Below are positions 612 to 827 of a DNA stretch of 64,000 bases, piece after piece. The position numbers were made by a program, and so were the translations under genes. The stretch covers positions 1 through 64,000 of IMG/VR virus record IMGVR_UViG_3300044701_002494, one strand, 5' to 3'. Under the pieces are notes generated by a model. The model did no database searches and was not told where the DNA came from. It worked only from the letters and a program-made list of their open reading frames with translations. The DNA is from a virus. The stretch's first letter is position 1. Each line of letters starts with the position of its first letter.

Positions 612-646
612 AAAAAAAGGGGAGGAAACTTTTGGTTTCTCTCCCC
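612..646 (-). terminator. Intrinsic terminator (attenuator 3:4 hairpin) upstream of tRNA operon
   Basis: GGGGAGAGAAAC-CAAAA-GTTTCCTCCCC followed by T7. Confidence 0.85.
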
Positions 647-673
647 TTTCTCTTTGCTTTTATGGATTACATC

Positions 674-775
674 TTACATATGTCTATCCATATCCACAAA
701 CAGGGGAGTACCCTCAATATGCCAATAGCGGCAATCAAGGTTACTAATCTGTTTGGTGGGCATTTGGAAAGACAT
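674..775 (-). CDS. 33-aa putative attenuator leader peptide MSFQMPTKQISNLDCRYWHIEGTPLFVDMDRHM
   Basis: Translated by hand; preceded by TTGACT-N17-TATAAATA and TAGG; followed by terminator; contains 19 of 20 amino acids. Confidence 0.75.
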   Translation of the reverse strand: MSFQMPTKQISNLDCRYWHIEGTPLFVDMDRHM

Positions 776-796
776 TGTTTTCGACCTAAGTGTTTT

Positions 797-827
797 TATT
801 TATAAGACTTTTTTGTTAAAAAGTCAA
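797..827 (-). promoter_or_regulatory. Composite sigma70 / T4 late promoter for the leader peptide
   Basis: TTGACT (827-822), 17-nt spacer, TATAAATA (804-797). Confidence 0.7.

Follow-up and report, generated by a model that had tools for sequence, protein, structure and literature searches.

Positions 827-612 of the IMG/VR virus record IMGVR_UViG_3300044701_002494 hold a leader unit of 216 nucleotides (nt) that consists of a promoter, an open reading frame (ORF) of 33 codons and an intrinsic terminator, and that stands between a tRNA-Arg gene and a tRNA array. The window analyzed comprised 64,000 nt (positions 1 to 64,000 of the record); coordinates given below are window positions, and all features of the locus lie on the minus strand. 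Judged by its sequence and by those of its homologues, the unit is likely to be a ribosome-mediated leader-peptide transcription attenuator that heads the main tRNA operon of the phage, a cyanophage. Such an attenuator had been proposed in an earlier note made from the sequence alone, whose coordinates for promoter, ORF, helices and terminator proved exact on the minus strand. The anatomy of the unit and its synteny are conserved, and both of its competing RNA folds covary.

The unit begins with TTGACT (827-822), a -35-like hexamer that abuts the 3' end of the tRNA-Arg(TCT) gene (902-827) and is separated by a 17-nt spacer from TATAAATA (804-797), a T4-type late promoter with a predicted start near 791. 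An AT-rich hairpin (825-806, arms 825-818 and 813-806) lies between the tRNA-Arg gene and this late promoter. The leader ORF (775-674) extends over 33 codons from the ATG at 775-773 to the TAA stop codon at 676-674. Within it, CCACCAAACAG (759-749) forms the core of region 1 and belongs to the 5' strand of helix 1:2, which in its entirety runs from approximately 789 to 741. An apical hairpin (739-713) is common to both conformers; in clades 1 and 2, two of the three sequence clades described below, it codes for the motif DCRYWHI. Region 2 (712-694), which contains CTCCCCT (708-702) and CTGTTTGTGG (703-694), pairs with either region 1 or region 3. The inner hairpin of the antiterminator (691-662; ATGGAT at 691-686 with ATCCAT at 667-662, ACAT at 683-680 with ATGT at 672-669) encloses the stop codon. 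Region 3 (657-641), made up of GCAAA (657-653) and AGGGGAG (647-641), serves as the 3' strand of the antiterminator and as the 5' arm of the intrinsic terminator, helix 3:4 (646-612), which has a stem of 646-635 and 629-619 with one bulged A, a loop at 634-630 and a T7 tract at 618-612. Owing to the bulged A, the terminator was overlooked by a simple terminator scan on this strand. A conserved spacer of approximately 120 nt (611-491) follows, which holds no conserved promoter and ends in a boxB-like hairpin (GGTGG...CCACC, 542-525) and the boxA-like motif GCACCTTGACAA (523-512), 21 nt before tRNA-Lys(TTT) (490-415). The array continues with tRNA-Tyr (412-329), tRNA-Asp (327-252), tRNA-Glu (203-129), tRNA-Pro (127-53) and a sixth tRNA cut by the contig end; these genes and tRNA-Arg were identified with ARAGORN and Rfam. 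As the 96-kb contig begins at window base 1, the remainder of the array is missing.

Approximately 150 homologous loci with more than 70 distinct peptides, falling into three sequence clades, were collected from IMG/VR contigs and the cultured phage S-PM2. An IMG/VR search with a 20-nt core yielded 108 contigs, to which a codon-degenerate version added 24 that differed solely by CGC to CGT. Patterns based on the core are biased towards an invariant core, and the boxA-like motif beside tRNA-Lys was therefore used as an independent anchor. It recovered clade 1 leaders with non-conservative core changes of R to Q and Y to D (DCQYWHI, DCRDWHI), as well as clade 3, which has a different central peptide, again of 33 codons, and which a further search extended to 12 contigs. 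Complete invariance of the 20-nt core was accordingly rejected as being partly an artefact of the search pattern, given these real variants and the third clade.

Regarding the cultured phages, BLAST recovered the full interval from tRNA-Arg to tRNA-Lys in S-PM2 only, with an identity of 72% and the same layout. The S-PM2 leader ORF has 34 codons (L001 1620-1724) and shows in-frame indels relative to the ORF of the window. It is not included in the S-PM2 annotation and would be a gene missed there; the annotation has an antisense ORF of 118 amino acids, S-PM2d160 (L001 1443-1799), across tRNA-Arg and the leader, which is probably spurious. S-CREM1, S-SZBM1 and S-SRM01 gave no hit in a degenerate-motif search that tolerated up to 2 mismatches; in S-CREM1, ordinary small coding sequences follow abiF/tRNA-Gly. 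The marine cyanophages S-CAM9 and ACG-2014d have the tRNA-Arg, and both the large array and the leader unit are absent from them.

The position of the unit is constant, directly 5' of the array led by tRNA-Lys(TTT) or of the tRNA that comes next in it, and its upstream neighbor is variable (an Arg, Ala, Asn or Gly tRNA, or none). The arrays of the homologues comprise 12-28 tRNA genes. Among the 47 arrays that no contig end interrupts, Arg-ACG, His, Ile-GAT and Lys occurred in 46, Gln and Asp in 45, and Met and Glu in 44.

The ORF was intact, with 31-34 amino acids, in the approximately 150 loci compared, except for L085 and a few loci truncated at contig ends. The ATG does not vary across homologues. 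Indels within the ORF measure 3, 6 or 9 nt, the 5' untranslated region and the flanks behind the stop codon are rich in indels of 1-2 nt, and synonymous variation is found at K, Q, I, R and G codons; as far as these patterns indicate, the ORF is under coding constraint. Some homologues have no upstream AGG at all, so that initiation would be independent of a Shine-Dalgarno sequence. The sole broken frame (L085 442-686) is due to a 2-nt insertion after codon 5 in front of an atypical array (Lys, Tyr, Asp, Trp and a long gap), and could reflect either misassembly or decay of the copy.

The minimum free energy (MFE) of positions 797-605 was -73.9 kcal/mol, compared with -37.9 +/- 3.7 kcal/mol in dinucleotide shuffles (z = -9.8). 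The MFE structure consists of a long hairpin joining the regions of the start and stop codons, plus the terminator; in this arrangement, referred to as fold A, the start codon is sequestered. Helix statistics were counted on a MAFFT alignment of 91 sequences from the three clades (A3), with slid partners and 500 shuffles as controls; the helix results from an earlier alignment of 84 sequences (A2) agree with them. Regarding the protector helix 1:2 (46 pairs), 84.9% of the alignment cells were paired, compared with 28-42% for slid partners, and 131 cells were changed on both sides, compared with 42 +/- 5 in the shuffles. Regarding the antiterminator helix 2:3 (26 pairs), the corresponding values were 90.2% versus 37-53%, and 93 versus 18.6 +/- 3.4 cells. 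Regarding the terminator helix 3:4 (18 pairs), they were 85.5% versus 59-74%, the slid controls being high because the arms are homopolymeric, and 50 versus 16.4 cells. For each of the three helices, none of the 500 shuffles matched the observed cells or the covariation score.

Individual homologues illustrate how these changes are linked. A three-way switch was seen in L031, L041, L119, L120 and L128, where C-terminal codons, their N-terminal partners in fold A and their post-stop partners in the alternative structure, fold B, change together; in L125 the fold-B partners alone were switched. A position in the 5' arm of the terminator covaries both with region 2 and with the 3' arm. The terminator is kept at the same place in all three clades, those of clades 2 and 3 being of unrelated sequence, and in each clade the 5' arm of its own terminator has its complement within the ORF, in region 2. 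The energies of the region 2:3 duplexes were -16.3, -15.5 and -26.8 kcal/mol in clades 1, 2 and 3, respectively, compared with -8 to -10 kcal/mol in shuffled controls. In all three clades the best partner window of region 3 was region 2, at an ORF offset of +56 to +71, and the inner hairpin of fold B encloses the stop codon. The three mutually exclusive helices drawn in the earlier note are all conserved across the homologues collected, together with the ORF, and compensatory change occurs in both competing folds.

Transcripts cut before the 3' arm of the terminator were folded with a 30-nt footprint over approximately codons 8-12, and fold B was the MFE structure in all 12 sequences; without the mask it was the MFE structure in 10 of the 12. 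The footprint-masked folds switch to pairing 2:3, which the earlier note had proposed for a leader occupied by a stalled ribosome.

The late motif TATAAATA was invariant in all 84 aligned homologues and stands 21 nt before the ATG. A TTGACT box (at least 5 of 6 matches to TTGACA at a spacing of 16-18 nt) was found in 55 of the 84. The promoter had been described as a TTGACT-driven one; the hexamer is indeed present, but a simple sigma-70 type does not describe the site, as the invariant part is the late motif. The cyanomyovirus late promoter is NATAAATA, and overlapping early and late promoters have been noted in S-PM2 (PMC2984593), which the TTGACT box of the homologues fits. In the contig (the window plus 32 kb), TATAAATA occurs 15 times on the minus, gene-bearing strand and not once on the plus strand. 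Of the 14 copies scored, nine are followed at a distance of 17-32 nt by the ATG of an ORF with 50 or more codons on the minus strand; several of these nine come directly after a terminator hairpin and T-run, which makes for a clean late-promoter map. The AT-rich hairpin (825-806) shows compensatory variants in L090 and S-PM2 (A2), and 63 of the 84 homologues have there an inverted repeat of 6 bp or more. It overlaps the TTGACT, which forms one arm of the covarying hairpin, and may be a processing or pause signal.

The 39 unique spacers between terminator and array contained no ATAAATA late motif and no consistent sigma-70 site. All 39, from the three clades, have a boxB-like hairpin and a boxA-like motif before tRNA-Lys; approximately 25 nt separate the U-tract from the boxB-like hairpin in clade 2. 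The boxA of cyanobacterial rrn operons is GAACCTTGAAAA (PMC8461337), which occurs exactly in L004 and in the version GCACCTTGACAA in the window. The position of this signal just before tRNA-Lys indicates that the polymerase arrives from upstream, and the signal may point to antitermination of the Nus type, or to processing, taken over from the rRNA operons of the host. A downstream promoter near 553, to which the earlier note had referred as a possible origin of the tRNA transcripts, was rejected: none is present there, and the TTGACA at 517-512 belongs to the boxA-like motif and lies too near tRNA-Lys. In S-PM2, the TTGACA of the boxA-like motif is just 12 nt from tRNA-Lys.

The leader peptides are largely non-redundant in composition, a property that was noticed post hoc. 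Of 72 unique leaders, 47 hold 19 or 20 kinds of amino acids within 31-34 residues; for random 33-mers, the probability of at least 19 kinds is 0.006 and that of 20 kinds is 0.0003, and only 0.3% of the 33-residue windows taken from the phage's own proteins reach 19 kinds. A run of at least 15 residues that are all different was found in 49 of 58 leaders of clade 1 (P = 0.0016), and the all-different run is typically 14 in clade 3 (P = 0.007) and 13 in clade 2 (P = 0.024). The coding frame has a mean of 18.7 kinds of amino acids, compared with 14.1-16.6 in the five other frames of the same DNA. The S-PM2 leader has 15 kinds only. No run of one regulatory codon was found in the leader. The claim that the sensor is 'universal' draws some support from the non-redundant amino acids, confined as they are to the coding frame, but the match of the leader codons to the array is weak (see below).

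The course of events at the unit is inferred from its anatomy as follows, and this includes that the ORF is translated, in which direction control acts and what signal is sensed. Transcription would begin at the overlapping early/late promoter (804-797), or would come from the early promoter upstream of tRNA-Arg. The 33-codon ORF would be transcribed first, and the nascent RNA would adopt one of the two folds. In fold A, the first half of the ORF would pair with the second half (1:2), and region 3 would remain available for the terminator (3:4). In fold B, the 5' arm of the terminator would pair with region 2, with the last codons and with the segment behind the stop codon (2:3); the terminator would be blocked, and RNA polymerase would continue via the boxB/boxA-like leader into tRNA-Lys and the remaining array. 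A ribosome delayed at approximately codons 3-19 would cover region 1 or sterically block helix 1:2 and leave region 2 free, with fold B and read-through as the consequence. Since the stop codon lies within fold B, a smoothly translating ribosome that has reached the stop would occlude fold B, and termination would ensue. Phage tRNA synthesis would in this manner probably follow the smoothness of ribosome decoding.

The leader spells nearly every amino acid once, so the signal would probably be general decoding capacity and not the supply of one amino acid. The quantity sensed could be the aminoacyl-tRNA supply in the current host, for instance that of an AT-rich phage in GC-rich Synechococcus; a mismatch in codon usage between phage and GC-rich hosts is documented (PMC3152331). 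Compensation for this mismatch is at least as plausible as the replacement of tRNAs cut by PrrC, PARIS or retron nucleases that the earlier note had put forward. A tentative reading, possible but held with slightly less than even confidence, is that of a pan-amino-acid gauge: the ribosome positions that decide the fold would sample nearly all amino acids, and the virus would read the overall decoding capacity of its host and switch the operon of 12-28 tRNA genes on only when needed. Decoding capacity could be lowered by codon-usage mismatch, by starvation or by cleavage of tRNAs by defense nucleases.

Proposals as to why phages carry large tRNA sets are compensation of codon usage, supply in late infection and escape from anticodon nucleases. 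If the attenuator operates as outlined, the tRNA supply of a phage would be regulated by demand and not constitutive, and the reach of classical attenuation would widen to include tRNA genes, viruses and a sensor of multiple amino acids. Full-text literature searches retrieved no paper in which attenuators or leader peptides are linked to the tRNA arrays of phages. The element is testable in the cultured model cyanophage S-PM2, for which Synechococcus WH7803 is a tractable host.

The enterobacterial leaders trpL, hisL, leuL and pheL and the multivalent thrL and ilvL possess a short translated ORF and helices 1:2, 2:3 and 3:4. The present unit shares with them the short ORF, the three overlapping helices and a stop codon positioned such that a ribosome completing the ORF would block the antiterminator; clades 1 and 2 further resemble them in that the terminator surpasses the antiterminator in stability. 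The trp/his-type architecture ascribed to the unit in the earlier note is supported by the conserved ORF, the three helices, the competing folds, the stop codon in the antiterminator and the linkage to the array. The enterobacterial leaders regulate biosynthetic enzymes, whereas tRNA genes in a virus, behind a T4-type late promoter, are concerned here; in place of a run of one regulatory codon, 19-20 amino acids occur approximately once each here; and, unlike in them, fold B is often the more stable one even without a ribosome. The unit is not related to them in sequence. The attenuator of pheST in E. coli, with the leader pheM, controls a component of the translation apparatus through decoding of cognate codons; there one amino acid is sensed and the operon is protein-coding and non-viral, in contrast to the multi-amino-acid leader and the viral tRNA operon of the present case.

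T-box riboswitches resemble the proposed unit in coupling tRNA charging to terminator read-through via an antiterminator. They bind uncharged tRNA directly and need no ORF, whereas the ORF is conserved here, which argues for sensing by the ribosome rather than for a T-box. An Rfam cmscan of positions 1-1600 (E <= 1) gave no match to a leader family or T-box, and positions 612-827 yielded chance-level matches only (sraA, E 0.84; mir-H20, E 0.11). The nearest published analogue is the trn operon of Anabaena sp. PCC 7120, a 26-tRNA array induced by translational stress (PMC8421152, PMC10272220). Like the array behind the present unit, it is a long accessory tRNA array of the cyanobacterial world, and it is switched on under impaired translation; its control is at the promoter, by the ribbon-helix-helix repressor TrcR acting on direct repeats, whereas an attenuator is proposed here. 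The terms 'attenuat', 'leader' and 'terminator' are absent from the text of PMC8421152.

Several observations weigh against attenuation by a ribosome. Sequences within a clade are close relatives, so that the covariation amounts to perhaps 5-10 independent events and not to 91, and the fractions of paired cells are inflated because the tested structures come from the window sequence, itself one of those aligned. Fold B is favored without a ribosome in most homologues, which means that the untranslated state may read through, unlike in trp. The array's own tRNAs read 69% of the leader codons compared with 59% of the codons of phage ORFs, a weak enrichment, for which reason a leader 'written in the codons of the array' was not used as a main argument. 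The DCRYWHI motif is conserved at both the nucleotide and the amino-acid level in clades 1 and 2; this is atypical of classical leader peptides, and the peptide itself could matter. In clade 2, a sigma-70-like sequence (TTGACA/TTGCAA-N17-TATTGT/TATGAT) overlaps the terminator and, if it is a real promoter, may provide a second, unattenuated input into the array. The spacer may also contain a promoter of a type outside the two known for cyanophages.

Some of these observations are shared with the alternative that fares best, although it is unlikely: a stand-alone late microgene whose 33-residue peptide is functional, whose folds govern its own translation or mRNA stability in the manner of hok, and beside which the array is expressed independently or by leak-through. 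The geometry of the unit is that of a canonical late gene, with TATAAATA as far ahead of the ATG as in other late ORFs of the contig, and the unit has a strong terminator of its own, into which clade 2 may have embedded a promoter. A microgene is also consistent with the retention of DCRYWHI in two clades and with the concealment of the start codon in fold A. The same central motif, however, is replaced in clade 3 and undergoes the non-conservative changes R to Q and Y to D in clade 1, and the N- and C-terminal residues vary freely provided that the RNA pairing persists. The leaders of the three clades matched no PHROGs family, and tblastn recovered no relative of the peptide among 50,697 phage records (E <= 1). 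Messenger RNAs of the hok family likewise have a short ORF, alternative folds, three-way covariations and a 5'-3' pairing that hides the start codon; they differ in encoding a hydrophobic peptide and in having an antisense RNA, neither of which is evident in this unit. The translation of 775-677 contains no hydrophobic stretch and is in this respect unlike a type I toxin, and no convergent promoter was predicted inside the unit. The alternative fold of hok competes with a translational activator element, whereas fold B competes with the transcription terminator: it specifically uses the terminator 5' arm and follows three different terminator sequences. Together with the invariable link of the unit to the head of the array, this favors attenuation over a microgene.

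An attenuator that senses its nascent peptide, by arrest of the ribosome on the conserved motif and perhaps with a small-molecule co-factor, as in TnaC or SpeFL, is distinctly improbable. Known arrest peptides resemble the leader in length (31-34 codons), and a core of seven residues is conserved at the amino-acid level in two clades. Clade 3, however, keeps the switch without the conserved core, and the nucleotide invariance of the core fits the apical hairpin equally well. Moreover, with the motif in the exit tunnel the ribosome would sit on region 2, where it would block both 1:2 and 2:3 and favor termination. Still more improbable is a non-coding small RNA, or a mere processing or terminator module of the tRNA cluster with an incidental ORF: the very stable fold (z = -9.8), the unit's own promoter and terminator, the homologues without a Shine-Dalgarno-like AGG and the stable RNAs of unknown function among the tRNA genes of T4 speak for it, but the frame is open at nearly all of the loci with in-frame indels only, the diversity of amino acids is specific to the coding frame, and a simple small RNA has no use for a second conserved fold in which the terminator is lost.

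Upstream of the unit, a lysozyme-like coding sequence ends at 1045. It is followed by a hairpin of a G-run and a C-run (G9/C6, 988-1027) with a TTGACG -35 box in its loop and a TATAAT immediately after, which make up a sigma-70 promoter with 11 of 12 matches (1017-988). This fused terminator-promoter has a counterpart in the clade-2 leaders L040 and L023, which share the design in their leader terminator. An abiF-motif RNA (Rfam RF03085, 943-907) scored 50.2 bits against a gathering score of 37; it is flanked by the early promoter and tRNA-Arg, and an AbiF gene does not adjoin it. The S-CREM1 record has an abiF motif annotated beside tRNA-Gly. Within the array, 48 nt (204-251) separate tRNA-Asp from tRNA-Glu, the remaining genes being packed at distances of 1-2 nt, and the homologues have 75-270 nt at this place.

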